Shown piece by piece: positions 2,685 through 54,006 of a stretch of DNA of 64,000 nucleotides. Below the pieces are notes generated by a model. The model made no database searches, had not been told where the DNA came from, and worked only from the letters and a program-made list of their open reading frames with translations. How positions within the stretch are numbered: the first letter of the stretch is position 1; each line of letters starts with the position of its first letter. Origin of the DNA: Escherichia phage Paul. Position numbers and translations under genes: made by a program. The stretch lies in sequence record NC_070992.1; one strand, given 5' to 3'.

Positions 2685-5684
2685 ATGGCGCTGTATCCAA
2701 TCAAGTCTTTAGGTGCTGTAGGCGTAATTGCTGATCAAGCTCCAACAGACTTAGCTCCTAATGCTTTCACTAATGCTATAAACGCTCGCTTTGTTGAGCA
2801 GAGGGTTTTTAAGACGGGGGGCAATGCCCCTCTTTCTTACGTAGATGAAGATAAAGATTTAACACCTCTGTCTTTTGTATCTATGCCTTTTGATTACTAT
2901 AGCGCAGGTAATAGCTTTCTTATTGTGGGAACTGATAAGAAGTTATATAAGCTGACAGATGAAAGCTTGACTGATATAAGCCGTAAGGTTGCTACAGTCA
3001 CTAAGAGGGCTTCTGCCTCTATTAAGATTTATCCAGTTGTTTCTAGAATTGTTCCTAAAGAGACCACCATCTCTATGAACTTTAACCAGACTAAAGCTCT
3101 CGAAGTTTCTGTTCTTCCAGAGGATGCTAACAATGCTGAACTAGTCTGGAGTTTAAGTAATTCCTCTTATGGTCAGATAACAGTAGACCCAACAGATTCT
3201 AAGAAGGCTTCTCTAAAATCTCTGAGTAAGGAAGGTAATTTAGTTGTTACTGTGAAAACTAAAGATGAAACTGTATCTGCTCAGATTGCTGTTAATATCA
3301 TTGATGGTGATTCAGGTATCTTCCTAAGCCAAGACACAGTAACTGTTCGTAAAGGAAGCAACACTACGATTACAGCTGTTACTGGAAAAACTCCTGTGAG
3401 CTGGTCTACTAACAACGGAGCTATCGTATCAGTTGTTCCTAACACAAACACCTTAACCGCTGTCATCACAGCTAACGGTACAGGAACTGCAACCATTACA
3501 GCAGACAATGGAACGAAGACTGCTACTTGTACTGTTAACGCAATACCTCAGATTGATAGTGTCTCTTTAAGTCAGACTGATGTTACTGTTAACAGAGGTA
3601 CTCAGTATATTCTGACAGCTACAGTATCCCCAGCTAATGCTCCTAATAAGAATATCACTTGGACTTCTTCCAATCCAAACATTGCTACAGTATCTGGCAC
3701 AGGAACAGAAGCTACTATCACGGCAATTACAGCCGGGTTTACAGAGATTACTGCTACTACCCAAGAAGGTAACAGAACTGCTGTTTGTACTGTCCGTGTT
3801 GAGCTTGCTGGTAGAATGTTAAGATCTTCCTTTATGGCAACAGCAGAACCAGAACCAGTTTCTGAAGAGGTTGTAGTTCCTGAATCAGAGGATGTTGTTT
3901 ACTTTGCAGCACCTACATCTGGAATTGATACAACAGGGATGGCTGAAGGTAACAACTTCTACGACTACTCTAACGTAGACGATATGGAAGGTTTTGCAAG
4001 AGCTTCTCTTTTTGCTACCCCTCTTGATTCTGTAACGTTGGATGTTGTTAGTGCTTCTCTTGATGTTGGGGAGGAGATAGTTATAACAGCGACTGCTTCC
4101 CCTGAAGGAGAGTATTCATATCTTTGGTCTGTTGATAAAACTGGATATGTTTCTACAACATCAGTAACAGGGAAAACACTTAAACTTACCGCTCTTCGTA
4201 AGGGTGAGGTTAATGTGACCTGTACAGTAAGTCAGATGACTCAGAGAGACTACGATGCATTTGATGATTATCCTTGGTATCATGCAGTAATTTCCAACTG
4301 TGCAGTAGCAACCACCCACTATGAAACACCTCAGGTTAAAGAGTTTGAATCTGAATACTTTGTAGATCTTCCGGGGTGGGGTGAGCAGACAGTAGTGGAT
4401 AATGATGGGAACCCTTCGGTTAAGAAATTCAACTGGAAGTGTGAGAGAGTAAGATCTTTCAACAACAGGTTGTTTGCTCTGAATATGAGGGAGTCCAATG
4501 CATCTGGTGTTACCACTAACTACCCGCTTCGTCTTCGTTGGTCTAACTTTGCTAATGAGAACAAAGCTCCTACGTTATGGGATGACTTTGCTTATGATCG
4601 AGTTGTGTCTTCAGACTTGGCTTCTAACATCGTAGGTCAGACTCAAGCACTAGAAAATGGATATGCTGGTTACATTGACTTAGCAGACTCCAACGGAAGC
4701 TTGATTGATATTCTACCTCTTAAAGATTACTTGTTCGTTTATACAGAGTTTGAAACGTACATTGGTTCTCCAACTAATAACACATATCAACCTCTGATGT
4801 TCAAGAAACTCTTTAACGATTCTGGCATCCTTGCCCCTGAGTGTGTGGTAGAGGTTGAAGGCAGTCACTTTGTTGTTACTCAGAACGACGTGATCTTACA
4901 TAACGGTGCAACCAAGAAGTCAATCGCTTCTAACCGTGTTAAGAACATGCTGATTAACGAGATATGTTTAGTTAACCCTTTAGCAACTCGAGTGCATTTG
5001 CATCAGGACAAGAAAGAAGTTTGGGTTCTTTATGTAGGTCCGGGAGAACCAAAAGAAAGCTTCGCTTGTACTAAAGCTGCTGTATGGAACTACGAGTTTG
5101 ATACTTGGTCTTTCCGTACTATCCCATACGCTCAGTGTATTGGTTTGGTTGACCCTCCTGTCCTTGAAAGGGGTCCGATTTGGGCTGACTTCCAAGAGAT
5201 CACTTGGGATGACCCATCAATCAAAGAGCTTGTTTGGAGAAAGGATGCAACTAACTTCCGCCAGAGGGTTACGATAGTAGGTTCGTTCCTACGAGGTTTC
5301 TATCAAGTGGATGTTGGTGCTTTAGATTACTTCTATGATAGGCTTAATGATAAGGTTATAGAAAAACCACTGGAGATGAGGTTAGAGAGAACTGGTATTG
5401 ATTTTGATAACGTCACTAATGAATGGAATCAGAAGCATATCAATAGATTCAGACCTCAAACAACAGGCTCTGGTACGTATACTTTCGAGGCAGGTGGTAG
5501 TCAATTCTCAAACGAATATGGTCATCCACATACATCCAAGACGTATACGATTGGTGTTGATAGACATGTCTCGGTGAGACTGAACCATCCATACCTTTTC
5601 TATAATGTTATAGATAATGATGTTAACAGTAATGCTGCTATCAATGGTTTAACGATAGAGTTTGCTGTTGGCGGGCGGAGATAA
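2685..5684 (+). CDS. tail protein with three tandem Big_2-like Ig domains
   Basis: 999 aa; three ~80-aa repeats of the type VTV..G....ITA......V.W.S.N..IATV...G..TA...G.A.ITA; SD AAGGAGG upstream. Confidence 0.55.
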   Translation: MALYPIKSLGAVGVIADQAPTDLAPNAFTNAINARFVEQRVFKTGGNAPLSYVDEDKDLTPLSFVSMPFDYYSAGNSFLIVGTDKKLYKLTDESLTDISRKVATVTKRASASIKIYPVVSRIVPKETTISMNFNQTKALEVSVLPEDANNAELVWSLSNSSYGQITVDPTDSKKASLKSLSKEGNLVVTVKTKDETVSAQIAVNIIDGDSGIFLSQDTVTVRKGSNTTITAVTGKTPVSWSTNNGAIVSVVPNTNTLTAVITANGTGTATITADNGTKTATCTVNAIPQIDSVSLSQTDVTVNRGTQYILTATVSPANAPNKNITWTSSNPNIATVSGTGTEATITAITAGFTEITATTQEGNRTAVCTVRVELAGRMLRSSFMATAEPEPVSEEVVVPESEDVVYFAAPTSGIDTTGMAEGNNFYDYSNVDDMEGFARASLFATPLDSVTLDVVSASLDVGEEIVITATASPEGEYSYLWSVDKTGYVSTTSVTGKTLKLTALRKGEVNVTCTVSQMTQRDYDAFDDYPWYHAVISNCAVATTHYETPQVKEFESEYFVDLPGWGEQTVVDNDGNPSVKKFNWKCERVRSFNNRLFALNMRESNASGVTTNYPLRLRWSNFANENKAPTLWDDFAYDRVVSSDLASNIVGQTQALENGYAGYIDLADSNGSLIDILPLKDYLFVYTEFETYIGSPTNNTYQPLMFKKLFNDSGILAPECVVEVEGSHFVVTQNDVILHNGATKKSIASNRVKNMLINEICLVNPLATRVHLHQDKKEVWVLYVGPGEPKESFACTKAAVWNYEFDTWSFRTIPYAQCIGLVDPPVLERGPIWADFQEITWDDPSIKELVWRKDATNFRQRVTIVGSFLRGFYQVDVGALDYFYDRLNDKVIEKPLEMRLERTGIDFDNVTNEWNQKHINRFRPQTTGSGTYTFEAGGSQFSNEYGHPHTSKTYTIGVDRHVSVRLNHPYLFYNVIDNDVNSNAAINGLTIEFAVGGRR

Positions 5685-5688
5685 CAAC

Positions 5689-5720
5689 AAGGGGCTTCGT
5701 GCCCCTTTTATTGTTTTGGA
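5689..5720 (+). terminator. intrinsic terminator (AAGGGGC-TTCGT-GCCCCTT + TTTTATTGTTTT)
   Basis: GC hairpin followed by a T-rich tract right after the stop at 5684. Confidence 0.6.
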
Positions 5721-5727
5721 GGAACTT

Positions 5728-6741
5728 ATGGGTGCAGGTGGTTTTCGTAAGAACACTGGTCGCAATAACACCACACTCCCGTACAACGTTGGGTTTCTCA
5801 ATAATGTACAGGACACAGAAACTTATAACGTAGCCGTGTATGACGAACTACAGAAAGTCAGCACAGCCACTAACCAAATGTTCCAAGCTATTGACGAGAT
5901 TCACGATGAGATTGATGTTCGTATCAAAGCCCTCAATGCGATGAACCTACAATTTGACGAGCTTGAGAACAGGATTACTACAGAGATTGAAACAGCTATT
6001 GCAGACATTCAAACTCAAATGGGTAATTTATCCACTGATGATATTTGGGATAACTCAGTACAACCTCCGGTTAAACTGGAAAGCTCTATCTCTGGTATTA
6101 AAACGAGTATTGAAGGTAATGATTTAAAGATTCAAACTGTGCAAGGGATTGTTAATGACCAAGGTGAAGAGATTGCTTTGGTTCAAACAGAGTTAACTTC
6201 TCAAGGCCAACAAATCTCTGACGTAGACGGTAGAGTTACCACTGTTCAAAACTCACTGTCTCAGTATATGAAGCTTACCTCCTATGAAGCTACATGGGGT
6301 GTAAACTCTTCAGTCAACGGTCAATATGCCGGAGTTAAATTAACTAACAACGGAACTAATAGTCAATTCCAAGTAACAGCTAACAAGTTCATCGTAGGTA
6401 ACGGTACGACAGGGAATAACCCTTTTGTATTTGAGAACGGAAGAGCTAGAATGGAGTTCGCTGATATAAAGAACGTCAACATCACAACTGCCATGATTGC
6501 TAATGCTAGGATTCAGTGGGCACAGATTGATAACGTTTCAGTGAGTAATGCTCAGATTCAAAACTTGGCAGCCAACAAAATTACAGCTGGGGCTATGAGT
6601 GGTACGAACTGGAGACTTACTGTTGGTGGGGATTTCCAATTAGGTGCTGGTTCTGGTAGTAACCGGTTGTGGATGAATGGTAGCCGTATCGACTTCTATG
6701 ATGCAAGTGGTACGCTTCGTATTAGAATAGGGACTTGGTAA
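5728..6741 (+). CDS. tail fibre protein (coiled-coil N-terminal region)
   Basis: Track ORF 5662..6741; probable start is the ATG at 5728 after SD GGAGG and downstream of the terminator; heptad-rich region and fibre-like C-terminus. Confidence 0.45.
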   Translation: MGAGGFRKNTGRNNTTLPYNVGFLNNVQDTETYNVAVYDELQKVSTATNQMFQAIDEIHDEIDVRIKALNAMNLQFDELENRITTEIETAIADIQTQMGNLSTDDIWDNSVQPPVKLESSISGIKTSIEGNDLKIQTVQGIVNDQGEEIALVQTELTSQGQQISDVDGRVTTVQNSLSQYMKLTSYEATWGVNSSVNGQYAGVKLTNNGTNSQFQVTANKFIVGNGTTGNNPFVFENGRARMEFADIKNVNITTAMIANARIQWAQIDNVSVSNAQIQNLAANKITAGAMSGTNWRLTVGGDFQLGAGSGSNRLWMNGSRIDFYDASGTLRIRIGTW

Positions 6742-6742
6742 T

Positions 6743-7777
6743 ATGGCATATGGAATATGGACAACGCCAGTCGGACCGGGACCGGCTTCTCCGGCTGAGC
6801 TTTTTATTGACAGTGATACCACCTTTCCTCAATTTAAGAATAGGGTCAGTGGTAATTATAACTTTAATGGAGGCAGTAGAGATTTCCCTATTTCTGGATG
6901 GGATGGCTCAGGCCAAATCGTTGTAGTACCTACTGGCTCTTTATGTTGGCAATGGGAAGTCCCTCCTAACCTTGTCCCTGATGTGTATGTTGTAAATAAT
7001 ATCAGTATTGTGAATAACTCAACTTTCAGAGTTAGCATAAATATGAATCCCGGAAGTAACCCATTGTTTGATGTAGCTTTTAATGTGTATCAAATATGGC
7101 CTAGGGCTAACAGAAACTACGGGATAACCTTTTCAAACACAGCTGATTACTTCTCTATATCAGATGCTGGAGTTGTTGGTCAATGTATTTGGGCTTGGGA
7201 AGGAAATATTAATGGCTCCATGCAAATACCAGCAATCAGTGGTTTTGATATGTCTAGGGCTTCAGTGTTTGCTAACTGGTCTGGAGGACAAGGTTTACTC
7301 TATGATGCTGGGAGTCGTAATATCAGGGTTTACCAAAACAGAACCTACGATAACGGAAACAACAACCAAACAGGAACAATCAATAATGTGAGAGTTGCAG
7401 TGTTCTGTAATGGGGCTGGTGTTCCTACTCACAATGGGGGATTAAACATATATTCACCTAATGGTTCTCAGTGTGTATTTTCTACTTACAGAACACCTTT
7501 TATGGTTGATCGTTTTATGGCTATGAGTGGAGGGAATACTGGACTTACATATCCTATGATACCTCTGACAAACGGAGCAGGTTCTATTAGAGGTCAGGCG
7601 GGGAGTTGGTATTTCCAACATGCTAGATCTCATACGATGAACGGCTCTTCTTTTGGTACAGGGTATGGTCGATATATGTTCCAGTGGGATAGAAACTACG
7701 ATATGGGTGGTGGTGGAGCTATCTCCCTTCAGGTTCCAGTCCTAGATGCTAGGAAAATTTTTAGAAGCATACAATAA
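6743..7777 (+). CDS. putative tail fibre/receptor-binding protein
   Basis: 344-aa ORF tightly packed in the tail block; Gly/Asn-rich; no recognisable enzymatic motif. Confidence 0.3.
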   Translation: MAYGIWTTPVGPGPASPAELFIDSDTTFPQFKNRVSGNYNFNGGSRDFPISGWDGSGQIVVVPTGSLCWQWEVPPNLVPDVYVVNNISIVNNSTFRVSINMNPGSNPLFDVAFNVYQIWPRANRNYGITFSNTADYFSISDAGVVGQCIWAWEGNINGSMQIPAISGFDMSRASVFANWSGGQGLLYDAGSRNIRVYQNRTYDNGNNNQTGTINNVRVAVFCNGAGVPTHNGGLNIYSPNGSQCVFSTYRTPFMVDRFMAMSGGNTGLTYPMIPLTNGAGSIRGQAGSWYFQHARSHTMNGSSFGTGYGRYMFQWDRNYDMGGGGAISLQVPVLDARKIFRSIQ

Positions 7778-19298: not shown

Positions 19299-20784
<1,486 letters not shown>

Positions 20785-20785
<1 letters not shown>

Positions 20786-21042
20786 TATTCTATTCCACGC
20801 TCTTTCAGAGCTTCTAACAATCCATTGTGATTAGCAGCACATTCTGTGTACTGGTCCTGATACCACTCCAACGTAGTGGCTAGTGCTTTTCCTTGAGCAC
20901 TTTCTAAAAGAGGTAGGTCAACCCTACATTCAGCTTTTAGGTTTGTTGGTAAGGGCATTGATTGCCTGCTGTTGTCGCTCGTTGAACAAGCTGACATACT
21001 CATCACTAGCGCAGACATTATAAAAAACTGGTTTAGTTTTCT
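20785..21042 (-). CDS. putative o-spanin (outer-membrane lipoprotein), overlapped with the i-spanin gene
   Basis: Internal Met start MRKLNQFFIMSALVMSMSAC gives signal plus lipobox-like MSAC; short Cys-containing periplasmic part; starts inside the upstream gene in another frame. Confidence 0.35.
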
Positions 21043-21304
21043 CATAATGCATCTCTTTATAAACGGTTTCCGTGTTCTTCTTCCAGTTAGATAAACCGGT
21101 AAGAACTCTCTGAGCAACTTCATCAGCTGCTCTACTTCTTTCAATCTCTAACTCTTGTTGATGTTTCTCTTTATCCAGATTGCTACTGTCTGTTTGGTAC
21201 TCGTTAAACTTCATACCACCAAAGAATACAAGAGCTGAGAAAACGATAAACCCTAAGTTATCACTTAATGTGTTTTGCATGTTATCTCCAACGAAAAAAG
21301 CCAC
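20930..21304 (-). CDS. putative i-spanin (N-terminal TM plus periplasmic coiled coil)
   Basis: TM segment LGFIVFSALVFFGG followed by a charged helical region; 3' end overlaps the o-spanin candidate as in Rz/Rz1. Confidence 0.4.
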   Translation of the reverse strand: MAFFVGDNMQNTLSDNLGFIVFSALVFFGGMKFNEYQTDSSNLDKEKHQQELEIERSRAADEVAQRVLTGLSNWKKNTETVYKEMHYEKTKPVFYNVCASDEYVSLFNERQQQAINALTNKPKS

Positions 21305-30022: not shown

Positions 30023-30338
30023 GACGTACACCTGTTTTAAGTCTGTAAACAGATAGGGCCATACAGGCCACTGTTTCACTGTGTGGGAGATGCATTCCTG
30101 TAGAACCATCCCAGTCTTTGAACTCTTTGTCAAAGACTCCGGTAGGCTCTGGATACAAGGCTTGCAACTCAACCAAATCATTAGCAACTTGTTGCCATTT
30201 ATCATCAGACCAGATAGGGTCATCCAACCAGTAATACAAATAGGAATGGATGATCAATTGCCTTCTGTGCCGATTAATTACTTCAGCGGGACTTATTTCA
30301 CTTCCATTTGAAGTCCTAAATGTATTACTGTCGATCAT
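30015..30338 (-). CDS. hypothetical protein
   Basis: 107-aa ORF with Trp/Asp-rich globular-looking sequence. Confidence 0.35.
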   Translation of the reverse strand: MIDSNTFRTSNGSEISPAEVINRHRRQLIIHSYLYYWLDDPIWSDDKWQQVANDLVELQALYPEPTGVFDKEFKDWDGSTGMHLPHSETVACMALSVYRLKTGVRHG

Positions 30339-30541
30339 TATGAAAATTTCCGTTCCGTTAAAAAGTACTGAACTTCATTATCTGGAGACCAAACCTTTTC
30401 TCCATTTACCAATTTCTTAGCATCTTCATACGAAGCACAATCCAAAGCAGGGTTATCAGGTGTCGGTTTCCCTAGGAAATATTTCCAAGTCCAACGCTCT
30501 CCGTCATCATCTTGACAGTCAAGAGTCCATAATGTTTTCAT
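30338..30541 (-). CDS. hypothetical protein
   Basis: 67-aa ORF. Confidence 0.3.
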   Translation of the reverse strand: MKTLWTLDCQDDDGERWTWKYFLGKPTPDNPALDCASYEDAKKLVNGEKVWSPDNEVQYFLTERKFS

Positions 30542-51683: not shown

Positions 51684-51929
51684 TCATGAGTCCTCATACT
51701 TTTTGTTAGGGAGTATAAAATCCCACAGGGCAGCCCATGCTACGAGTGCTATAAATAGTACAGCAATAATAGGCCACAAGAAAACCATAGCTGCTATCTT
51801 TCCGAGGTCTGGTTCACCATCCCAACCTCTGAAACACTGATTACCTTTAACATCTATGACCTTAATTAGAACACCTGATACCACTGACCCTATCAGGTAG
51901 GCTATTAACACACTAACAAGACTGGTCAC
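51684..51929 (-). CDS. two-TM membrane protein
   Basis: 81 aa with hydrophobic helices at about residues 3-23 and 45-68. Confidence 0.4.
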   Translation of the reverse strand: MTSLVSVLIAYLIGSVVSGVLIKVIDVKGNQCFRGWDGEPDLGKIAAMVFLWPIIAVLFIALVAWAALWDFILPNKKYEDS

Positions 51930-52086
51930 AAGGTTGATCTCCGCATGTTTTACAGATCACTGGTGAGTAACTACAGGCAGGGTATACTGACACGCCATTC
52001 CACGTCTCACACCCACAATCAGGATATGTACCGTTAGATTCCATATCATCACCGTCATCCACTTCACCGCCACCAAAACAACTCAT
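51913..52086 (-). CDS. small cysteine-rich protein (57 aa, below the track cutoff)
   Basis: ORF MSCFGGGEVDDGDDMESNGTYPDCGCETWNG...CKTCGDQPCDQSC found by eye; strong SD AAGGAG 5 nt upstream. Confidence 0.35.
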   Translation of the reverse strand: MSCFGGGEVDDGDDMESNGTYPDCGCETWNGVSVYPACSYSPVICKTCGDQPCDQSC

Positions 52087-52574: not shown

Positions 52575-52856
52575 TTACCACTCCTTACCAGTTGTTGTTA
52601 CAGAGCCACCACACCACTGTGCATCTGACAAGGTTTTAGTCTCCTCGTCCACTGCTGCGCCATTCAGGCATGAGATACCATTGTAACGCATATCAACTTC
52701 ACCAGAAGGAACCTTCTCACCTTTATGCCAGCGAGAAACACAAACACCTTCCACTGCTACTGCACACCACCCATTAGGACGGCTCTGTACGCAGCCTGTA
52801 AGGGCCACGCAGACAAGGAAGATACAGATTAAGGATATTACACCACCCCAACTCAT
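52575..52856 (-). CDS. cysteine-rich secreted lipoprotein
   Basis: Signal peptide with canonical lipobox LTGC (MSWGGVISLICIFLVCVALTGC); mature part has 6 further Cys. Confidence 0.5.
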   Translation of the reverse strand: MSWGGVISLICIFLVCVALTGCVQSRPNGWCAVAVEGVCVSRWHKGEKVPSGEVDMRYNGISCLNGAAVDEETKTLSDAQWCGGSVTTTGKEW

Positions 52857-52887
52857 AACTGCCTCCTAATTAATTTGGCGTCCCCTA

Positions 52888-53400
52888 CTAGGGTAGGTGA
52901 TTCCAAGTGTCACCCCTTATTGCACTACCTAGTGTCGCCCTGTTAACTCCAAACCTTCGAGACATTGCAGCAATACCAAACTCTCTGTCCCTAGGCACAT
53001 AGTTTTCTTTACAGAAATTTATTAACTCTTCTGTAAGTTTTGCATTTGGGCACTCCTCACCTTTTCTTGGCAGGATTAAACCTTCTCTAAATGCATGTTG
53101 TACGTTTCCACTAACTGTCACCCATTCTAAGTTATCCTCAAAATTATTAAACTTATCACCATCGATATGATTTACAACCGGATAGTTGTTTGGATTCTCC
53201 TTGAAAGCTTTAGCAACTAGTTGGTGAATCTTCAAACACTTGTAAACACCTTGCCTACCTCCTATCTTTGTGACATGAGACAGATATCCATTTATAGGAT
53301 TGAGTCTAAGTATTCGATTAGTCCTCTTGCTGAAAAGGCGACCTCTATTACTAATCGAAAACAACTCTTCGTAACCTACTACATCTTTCCACTCTTCCAT
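52888..53400 (-). CDS. HNH homing endonuclease (NUMOD4/HNH_3-like)
   Basis: W.DVVGYEELF.ISN.GR...NGY...HQLVAKAF...VNHIDGDKFNN..NLEWV pattern; next to the tRNA gene. Confidence 0.65.
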   Translation of the reverse strand: MEEWKDVVGYEELFSISNRGRLFSKRTNRILRLNPINGYLSHVTKIGGRQGVYKCLKIHQLVAKAFKENPNNYPVVNHIDGDKFNNFEDNLEWVTVSGNVQHAFREGLILPRKGEECPNAKLTEELINFCKENYVPRDREFGIAAMSRRFGVNRATLGSAIRGDTWNHLP

Positions 53401-53430
53401 TGAGTGATCTCCTTATTTGAGAGTACTTTA

Positions 53431-53506
53431 AGAGGACGGGGAGATTCGAACTCACCAACCTAGAATTTAGAAGATTCTTGCTCTCATCCAATTGAGCTAC
53501 GCCCTC
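53431..53506 (-). tRNA. tRNA-Arg (anticodon UCU), no encoded CCA
   Basis: Folded by hand: acceptor GAGGGCG/CGTCCTC (one G-U), D-stem GCTC/GAGC, anticodon stem AGAAT/ATTCT, loop CTTCTAA, T-loop TTCGAAT; one extra nucleotide in the variable region; 3' end followed by TTAAAG. Confidence 0.7.
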
Positions 53507-53526
53507 TTAAAGTACTCTCTGTTTAA

Positions 53527-54006
53527 CTATTCAAAAACACATTTTACACCTACAACCCCATCTCCGCAGTCGTCACAGATGTGTCGAACTAAAACCTTAT
53601 CTCTTGGTAAGCAAGATCTTAACTCTTCCAACTGATCTCTTTTAATGTTAATACTTTTAACATAAGGGTGGGTGTCGTACATGATGTTCATGATATTTTT
53701 AGGCCAGGTGTAATCTGTTGGTTCCCCACAGGTACAACACCATCTCCAATTTATTACATCAATATCTTTTAACCTCTCCTCCTCTTCTCTGACTAAGGCC
53801 TCCTGTTCCTCCAACAACCTCAGCCTTTCTTTTAGTATTTTTTGATTTCTTTCTTCCTTCCTGTTTTCATGTGCCTCTTTTTGATCTTTTATGAAAAGCC
53901 AAACTCCGACACATAAAGCAGTCCAGATTATTGCGTTGACTATAGCTATGGTTTCCTCCAGATTTAGATCATATCTCGCTTGGTGATATGACCACATGTT
54001 TTGCAC
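53527..54006 (-). CDS. membrane-anchored coiled-coil protein with C-terminal zinc ribbon
   Basis: TM segment AIIWTALCVGVWLF, Glu/Arg/Lys-rich helix, then CCTCG ... CDDCGDG cysteine pairs. Confidence 0.35.
   Translation of the reverse strand: MQNMWSYHQARYDLNLEETIAIVNAIIWTALCVGVWLFIKDQKEAHENRKEERNQKILKERLRLLEEQEALVREEEERLKDIDVINWRWCCTCGEPTDYTWPKNIMNIMYDTHPYVKSINIKRDQLEELRSCLPRDKVLVRHICDDCGDGVVGVKCVFE

Follow-up and report, generated by a model that had tools for sequence, protein, structure and literature searches.

A putative Rtp45-type exclusion lipoprotein in the early gene cluster of a Kuravirus podophage, with LptDE as its candidate target

The lipoprotein Rtp45 of phage Rtp has been visualized by cryo-electron microscopy (cryo-EM) bound to the periplasmic rim of LptDE, the lipopolysaccharide (LPS) translocon, of Shigella (PMC12685063). 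Residues 30-35 of Rtp45 form a beta-sheet with residues 318-323 of LptD, a disulphide between Cys30 and Cys38 is present and was observed in structure 9RPS, and a long hairpin runs up the LptD lumen (PMC12685063). Rtp45 shifts the extracellular LptD loop EL4 by up to 20 Å and prevents binding of the phage receptor-binding protein (RBP), and the structure accounts for the exclusion of LptD-dependent phages (PMC12685063). Here we describe a gene for a small lipoprotein in a 64,000-nucleotide stretch of Escherichia phage Paul (NC_070992.1), which is referred to throughout as the window. Taking all links of the argument together, we consider it somewhat probable that the gene encodes an Rtp45-type exclusion lipoprotein that blocks LptDE. 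For the separate links, an exclusion function for the lipoprotein appears likely, and LptDE has slightly better than an even chance of being its target.

Other exclusion lipoproteins of this kind have been described. Lpp021, the product of gene 81 of phage mEp021, excludes mEp021 and mEp515 when it is expressed from a plasmid (PMC11893012). An early outer-membrane lipoprotein of phage T5, Llp, binds FhuA, the receptor of that phage, from the periplasmic side and keeps the RBP from binding; it acts through long-range allostery on a TonB-dependent transporter and not by loop displacement (PMC12685063). Among the BASEL siphophages, LptD specificity was found to go 'without exception' with the rtp44/rtp45-type locus (PMC8594841).

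The window lipoprotein belongs, with near certainty as judged from its sequence, to the PF24052/Rtp45-type family. It matches the Pfam model PF24052 ('Phage lipoprotein family') over its full length (122.8 bits against a cut-off of 27, E 5.5e-36), with residues 3-93 covering positions 1-80 of the 80-position profile; on the same model Rtp45 scores 128 bits and Lpp021, which is likewise a member, 106.8 bits. The protein also matches phrog_4281, and its sole real sequence match in the PDB is chain D of 9RPS, which is Rtp45 of phage Rtp (phmmer, E 3e-15). The Pfam and PDB E-values place the homology beyond chance. Identity with Rtp45 is 43% across residues 6-74 (tblastn), and once an insert, described below, is left out, the two proteins share 30 of the 54 mature residues in the alignment. 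By comparison, 35% identity was reported between Rtp45 and SE-Oeko, both superinfection exclusion proteins of LptD-dependent phages (PMC12685063), so that the window protein is more similar to Rtp45 than SE-Oeko is.

A set of 1.84 billion representative proteins, searched exhaustively with a profile, gave 17 clusters at 50% identity, of which about 15 are genuine members, all of them lipobox proteins of 73-109 amino acids (aa). Hence PF24052 is a small, phage-specific family. A word-indexed protein search had given just nine close relatives. The two clusters that were discarded, P0064 (1775 aa) and P0075 (577 aa), have repetitive sequences and are not related to the family; their scores arise from weak matches that recur along the protein. 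A scan of IMG/VR yielded only five loci, each a known Kuravirus type, and NCBIfam holds no model that matches either the lipoprotein or the DUF6453 protein introduced below.

The similarity to Rtp45 spans the lipobox through the final residue, with 10 of 18 residues identical across C22-C39, 13 of 23 across residues 40-62 and 7 of 11 at the C-terminus. Positions that are invariant in the family are G21, C22, G29-W30-C31, C39, G46, G52, D55, R57, G60, G84, E92 and W93. The best-conserved segments of the window lipoprotein are the counterparts of the contact strand and the hairpin described for Rtp45. An AlphaFold2 (AF2) model of the lipoprotein is all-beta beyond the signal helix (mean predicted local distance difference test score, pLDDT, 78; predicted template modelling score, pTM, 0.39), and a Foldseek search of the PDB with this model gave chain D of 9RPS as the sole credible match (probability 1.00; template modelling score, TM, 0.79 by target length), the next match having E>1.

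The feature that sets the Kuravirus proteins apart from Rtp45 is a segment bounded by two invariant cysteines, C63 and C82. It comprises 20 residues in the window protein and 18-33 across Kuravirus alleles, whose proteins are 93, 98, 99 or 108 aa long, and it is conserved within each allele type. The metagenomic relative P0062 has a different signal peptide and yet retains the insert of the 108-aa type. This retention, together with conservation within allele types, makes the insert look functional and not sloppy. In the AF2 model, strands 52-70 and 75-92 make one long hairpin in which the strand register would place residue 63 opposite residue 82, an arrangement compatible with a second disulphide, C63-C82, that clamps the extended hairpin. 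The insert would thus be predicted to make the second hairpin longer. An equivalent extra cysteine pair occurs in P0061, P0062 and P0072.

The source genome is that of a phiEco32-like podophage of the genus Kuravirus (Gordonclarkvirinae), and about 100 Kuravirus genomes match the window at 40-64 kb and 1-12.3 kb with 86-96% identity (megablast). The preliminary description of this DNA had placed an open reading frame (ORF) here, and the ORF is confirmed; it has 93 codons on the minus strand, an ATG start and a strong Shine-Dalgarno sequence (Table 1). The gene is packed tightly among small co-oriented genes, with 1 nt between its stop codon and the next ATG. Its product, which reads MSWGGVISLICIFLVCVALTGC followed directly by VQSRPNGWCAVAVEGVCVSRWHKGEKVPSGEVDMRYNGISCLNGAAVDEETKTLSDAQWCGGSVTTTGKEW, is 97% identical to phiEco32 gp106, annotated as 'putative phage lipoprotein', with three residues differing. 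The ratio of nonsynonymous to synonymous substitution rates (dN/dS) is 0.08 in the comparison with phiEco32 and 0.17-0.37 in those with other alleles, which indicates that the gene is real and under purifying selection.

Lipobox sequences were sought with the pattern [LVI][ASTVI][GAS]C and with a PROSITE PS51257-type pattern, {DERK}(6)-[LIVMFWSTAG](2)-[LIVMFYSTAGCQ]-[AGS]-C, with the cysteine required at positions 15-35. The protein fits both patterns with its cysteine at position 22. The preliminary description had called this a canonical lipoprotein signal with an LTGC lipobox; the lipobox stands, while 'canonical' needs qualification, as the PROSITE side rule asks for at least one Lys or Arg within the first seven residues and the n-region, MSWGGVI, is devoid of both. 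The charge-free n-region is invariant among the Kuravirus orthologues, whereas the siphophage homologues begin with MKK or MTN..K. Residues Val-Gln follow C22, and position +2 is a Val and not an Asp, which leaves the protein without the inner-membrane retention signal. By the established +2 rule of Lol sorting, a Val at this position would be expected to send the mature lipoprotein to the outer membrane. Six further cysteines had been counted in the mature protein, but there are just four (C31, C39, C63 and C82) among the 71 residues after C22; the precursor has seven in all, the other three being C11 and C16 of the signal peptide and C22, the predicted lipidation site. The lipobox by itself is weak evidence, since the lipobox pattern occurs in 11 of the window's 1387 ORF candidates with resolved starts and most of these are implausible; homology carries the identification.

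The lipoprotein gene sits in a leftward-transcribed cluster of small co-oriented genes in the right arm of the genome. This cluster is described as belonging to the experimentally determined early class of phiEco32 (PMC8948821; a table for SU10 was also consulted), in agreement with the early region named in the preliminary description. Such a position is as expected of an exclusion factor. A scan for sigma-70 promoters and terminators over 50.5-58.5 kb found no promoter-like site just upstream of the lipoprotein gene, and promoter-like sites in this interval are no commoner than in shuffled sequence; read-through from the early operon is assumed for this reason. The distant metagenomic homologues P0061 and P0063 are also found among small early-type genes and not beside tail genes, which suggests that the early placement is stable in the lineage. 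Divergent PF24052 lipoproteins lie among small genes on three metagenomic phage contigs, L015 (10001..10285), L016 (627..869) and L017 (3462..3704), where the neighbours include genes for ProQ, PRPP synthase, NAPRTase and TerB/TerC/TerD. In gene content, these contigs are similar to the early region of Salmonella phage 7-11, a phage that has no such lipoprotein.

One mechanism that would fit both the sequence and the solved homologue begins with transcription of the gene together with the early leftward operon, followed by export of the precursor, lipidation at Cys22 and cleavage. The mature lipoprotein would then bind the periplasmic rim of LptDE. There, the base of one strand of the LptD barrel would be the pairing partner of the strand clamped by the C31-C39 disulphide, and the long beta-hairpin would enter the LptD lumen. 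EL4 would be pushed outward as it is by Rtp45, and LptD would be locked in a shape that is closed to RBPs of the DUF6453 type. As a result, infected cells, and later their debris, would refuse phages that complete adsorption on LptD. The excluded phages would be rival small siphophages and, probably, progeny of the phage itself, because the genome encodes a DUF6453 protein beside the tail needle. The earlier suggestion that the lipoprotein is a superinfection exclusion or receptor-masking factor gains support, by way of homology, from Rtp45 and Lpp021.

A different consequence of binding at the same place may be considered, namely that the lipoprotein disturbs LPS export, which would serve either the takeover of the host or a change in the display of O-antigen, and that exclusion is a side effect. 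The binding site of the homologue lies within the LPS translocon, Kuravirus phages depend on O-antigen and the gene is early, all of which fit such a role. However, Rtp45 was co-expressed and purified with LptDE, and the available part of that report mentions no toxicity (PMC12685063); LPS that is already in place is not removable within one lytic cycle, and no evidence of a role in LPS export was found for any family member. We regard this explanation as very unlikely.

Since rtp45 adjoins the RBP gene rtp44 in siphophages, the window was searched with Rtp44. A 344-aa ORF, annotated as 'membrane protein / moron' in Kuravirus genomes and corresponding to gp19 of phage SU10 (Table 1), was matched by Rtp44 (E 1.6e-10) and by gp80 of mEp021 (E 4e-11) in tblastn. 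It scores 90.5 bits on Pfam PF20051 (DUF6453) and matches phrog_1265 (E 3e-100), two families that include Rtp44, and phmmer aligns it with the RBP chains of phage Oekolampad in 9RPT, 9RPW and 9RQI (E 3.3e-9). For an AF2 model of gp19 (pLDDT 86, pTM 0.87), the only significant Foldseek match in the PDB is 9rpt_C, the RBP on open LptDE (E 3e-12, TM 0.80). By these sequence and fold comparisons, the ORF is likely to encode the cognate RBP. The gene before it encodes the tail needle (SU10 gp18), which is matched by residues 905-1116 of Rtp43, the J protein (E 1e-4), and the needle domain resembles the distal part of J-type central fibres, the carriers of RBPs in siphophages. As called, the needle ORF starts at a TTG and runs to 359 aa. 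Since the orthologues have 322 aa and the PHROG match sets in only at residue 23, translation probably starts at an internal codon near 5773. The lipoprotein and DUF6453 genes are both present in roughly 100 Kuravirus records. The linkage of these two genes beside a J-type tip gene, as in siphophages, was not found in the window, where they lie about 46 kb apart on opposite strands. In Webervirus phages of Klebsiella, the DUF6453 and PF24052 genes are about 10 kb apart (19774..20646 and 30263..30481 in MN013075.1; 19446..20318 and 30230..30448 in OR532816.1). Linkage of blocker and RBP is thus typical and not universal, and its loss is not unique to Kuravirus.

A number of observations weigh against the interpretation that the lipoprotein blocks LptDE. 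The case for any Kuravirus lipoprotein is one of homology, and among the papers searched none was found that connects Kuravirus or phiEco32 with either LptD or an exclusion lipoprotein. Kuravirus entry has been described as binding to O-antigen by long fibres and then to the cell surface or LPS core by short fibres, and these descriptions name no protein receptor (PMC11990801, PMC9509320). The signal peptide has no basic residue, which leaves export and lipidation uncertain. The AF2 model of the lipoprotein is of moderate confidence, and the authors of the Rtp45 structure noted that AlphaFold3 (AF3) mispredicts the Rtp45 family and its complexes (PMC12685063). Protein gp19 was not among the 34 proteins identified by proteomics of SU10 virions, although gp11-13, gp16-18 and gp20-24 were, and it was not placed in the SU10 cryo-EM model; it might be a virion component of very low copy number, or none at all. 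Coupling of lipoprotein alleles to gp19 alleles was sought and not found: identities to the window proteins for gp19 and lipoprotein, respectively, are 97.7% and 69.7% in VTCCBPA_211, 70% and 97.8% in ES17, and 42.5% and 91.4% in Bas94. Independent assortment of alleles is weak evidence against a tight pair, as an exclusion protein binds the receptor and not the RBP, and allele coupling is not strictly required. Finally, the family member Lpp021 comes from a phage that is reported to require OmpA.

Several of these points would also fit the idea that the lipoprotein blocks LptD solely to exclude competing LptD-dependent siphophages, with the Kuravirus itself making no use of LptD and gp19 having another role or being absent from the virion. 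The failure to detect gp19 in SU10 virions, the uncoupled alleles, the fact that O-antigen and short fibres so far explain Kuravirus infection and the location of the lipoprotein gene among early host-takeover genes, distant from the tail genes, all speak for it. The behaviour of the gp19 gene argues the other way. The order short fibre, nozzle, needle, DUF6453 protein and SLT ejection protein is retained even in relatives with only about 45% identity, and gp19 alleles fall into identity classes of at least 95%, about 80%, about 70% and about 43%, a diversity that is usual for receptor binders. Moreover, the distant phiEco32-like Salmonella phage 7-11 is without the needle, the DUF6453 protein and the lipoprotein alike. 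On this evidence, exclusion directed at competitors alone seems rather improbable.

The reported OmpA requirement bears on a further alternative, in which an Rtp45-family exclusion lipoprotein blocks an outer-membrane protein other than LptD, either OmpA or another barrel, with the C63-C82 insert conferring a new specificity. Plating of mEp021 is reported to fall strongly on an ompA knockout, with a leaky phenotype (PMC11893012), and Lpp021, whose identity with the window lipoprotein is 40%, excludes phages that plate poorly on that knockout; the target of the family may thus not always be LptD. The Kuravirus insert, missing from Rtp45 and different between alleles, and the identity of only 23-27% between Kuravirus gp19 and the LptD-binding RBPs of siphophages are in keeping with a changed target. 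It is to be set against this that all family members with a structurally or genetically defined target point to LptD, and that the parts of Rtp45 described as touching LptD are those best conserved in the window lipoprotein. The mEp021 case itself is ambiguous. A comparison of the mEp021 locus (L004, 1762..2915, genes 80 and 81) with that of Rtp (L003, 5992..7157) was made, and mEp021 gp80, a DUF6453 protein, is 64% identical to Rtp44, the LptD-binding RBP candidate. As lptD is essential, it falls outside tests with Keio knockouts, which leaves OmpA uncertain as the terminal receptor of mEp021; LptD could be the real one. A target other than LptD is accordingly given a minor chance, and a block of LptDE is the reading that we prefer.

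The immediate neighbours of the lipoprotein gene are an HNH endonuclease gene and a gene for an 82-aa soluble protein, neither of which has features of an inner-membrane spanin (i-spanin). This matters for the idea that the lipoprotein is an outer-membrane spanin of the Rz1 type, which its small size, predicted outer-membrane location and cysteines might suggest. The window contains a separate spanin pair, an Rz-like gene with an overlapping lipobox ORF (MRKLNQFFIMSALVMSMSAC...) at 20785..21304, and the lipoprotein is homologous to Rtp45 and not to spanins; the spanin explanation was rejected and deserves next to no weight. The holin and endolysin genes, near 1.1-1.9 kb, are a long way from the spanin pair. 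A 1.07-kb stretch at 52889..53961, holding the HNH gene and a tRNA-Arg gene, stands in place of about 70 bp of phiEco32, and an HNH or homing endonuclease is listed in some other Kuravirus records across the 3-kb stretch queried. The features discussed are collected in Table 1.

Table 1. Positions of the lipoprotein gene, its parts and other features in the window
Feature	Coordinates	Strand	Basis or remarks
Lipoprotein precursor gene, 93 aa	52575..52856	-	ATG start; stop codon 52575..52577; phiEco32 gp106 orthologue
Shine-Dalgarno sequence AGGAGG, 5 nt before the ATG	52862..52867	-	Direct sequence reading
Predicted signal peptide, residues 1-21 (MSWGGVISLICIFLVCVALTG)	52794..52856	-	Long hydrophobic core; no Lys/Arg; holds C11 and C16; invariant in Kuravirus orthologues
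Lipobox L19-T20-G21-C22; Cys22 is the predicted lipidated first mature residue	52791..52802	-	Pattern scan; G21 and C22 family-invariant
C31...C39 segment WCAVAVEGVC	52740..52766	-	Aligns with the Rtp45 Cys30-Cys38 disulphide and LptD-pairing strand (Rtp45 residues 30-35); both Cys invariant in 25 family members
Beta-hairpin core, residues 40-62 (VSRWHKGEKVPSGEVDMRYNGIS)	52671..52739	-	Conserved; long strands in AF2 model
Insert bounded by invariant C63 and C82	52611..52670	-	Missing in Rtp45; varies in length and sequence between alleles
C-terminal strand GGSVTTTGKEW	52578..52610	-	Family motif G-S-x(4)-G-x-K-E-W; G84, E92 and W93 invariant
DUF6453 protein, 344 aa (SU10 gp19, Bas90_0015)	6743..7777	+	Homologue of Rtp44 and of the LptD-binding Oekolampad RBP
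Tail needle (SU10 gp18), Phage_Tail_Tip domain	5662..6741	+	Pfam PF09327, E 1.3e-24; SU10 assignment from PMC9509320
Rz-like i-spanin	20930..21304	-	phrog_1152, E 3e-37
Lipobox ORF overlapping the i-spanin gene	20785..21045	-	Lipobox scan
HNH/NUMOD4 homing endonuclease, directly upstream of the lipoprotein gene	52888..53400	-	
tRNA-Arg(tct)	53430..53507	-	Does not align with phiEco32 tRNA-Arg
57-aa ORF with eight cysteines and acidic N-terminus	51913..52086	-	phrog_13157 (function unknown); three genes downstream of the lipoprotein gene
81-aa predicted membrane protein, after the 57-aa Cys-rich ORF	51684..51929		

Viewed alone, the lipoprotein is an ordinary member of a small and recently explained exclusion family, and it already carries the name of a putative lipoprotein in phiEco32. 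What is distinctive is its lineage-specific insert, bounded by a putative disulphide, and the uncoupling of its gene from the RBP gene. It is possible that Kuravirus holds the entire siphophage set for LptD recognition in two places, consisting of a needle with a J-type tip, a DUF6453 RBP and an Rtp45-type lipoprotein, and that LptDE is its terminal protein receptor, although we advance this only tentatively and would not call it probable. In that event gp19 at the needle tip would engage LptDE after O-antigen binding, and the early lipoprotein would close LptDE from the periplasm. The allele-variable, disulphide-clamped extension of the hairpin may reach higher in the LptD lumen than Rtp45 does.

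Kuravirus phages, including ES17, SU10 and BASEL phages Bas86-94, are used and studied for therapy, and LptD is both essential and strongly conserved. The presence of homologues of both the blocker and the LptD binder in one podophage genome leads to the testable prediction that LptD takes part in Kuravirus entry, and to the further prediction that infected cells turn resistant to LptD-dependent phages. If these predictions are true, the LptD module would extend from siphophages to podophages, and the blocker would be separable from the RBP gene and placeable under early control. There would be implications for phage cocktail design as well, since Kuravirus phages and LptD-dependent siphophages could then exclude one another.

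The classic exclusion lipoproteins to which the preliminary description alluded, Cor of T1 and Llp of T5, turn out not to be relatives of the window protein. T1 Cor gave no BLASTP alignment with the lipoprotein at E<=100, and on PF24052 it reaches 17.7 bits (cut-off 27), with the match mainly in the signal peptide; no Llp chain was among the PDB phmmer matches at E<=10 or among the 50 Foldseek PDB matches listed. Cor, known from T1, phi80 and N15, is also a small exclusion lipoprotein and is encoded near tail genes, and Llp is likewise comparable in function. Both are functional analogues of the window lipoprotein. Lpp021, as a member of PF24052, is a relative, and it differs in that its gene adjoins its DUF6453 gene, its second cysteine pair is a different one and a dependence on OmpA has been reported for its phage.

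The closest described counterpart is Rtp45. The two proteins share the lipobox, the Cys30-Cys38 pair (C31-C39 in the window protein), the hairpin motif W..G..VP.GEVD.RY.GI, the C-terminal motif GS....G.KEW and the predicted fold, and both genomes encode a homologue of the DUF6453 RBP. Rtp45 has no insert, whereas the window protein has one of 20 residues closed by a second cysteine pair, and the n-region of the window protein is uncharged. The gene rtp45 is directly upstream of rtp44 beside the J gene, while the window gene has its place in the early operon of a podophage, some 46 kb from the RBP-like gene.

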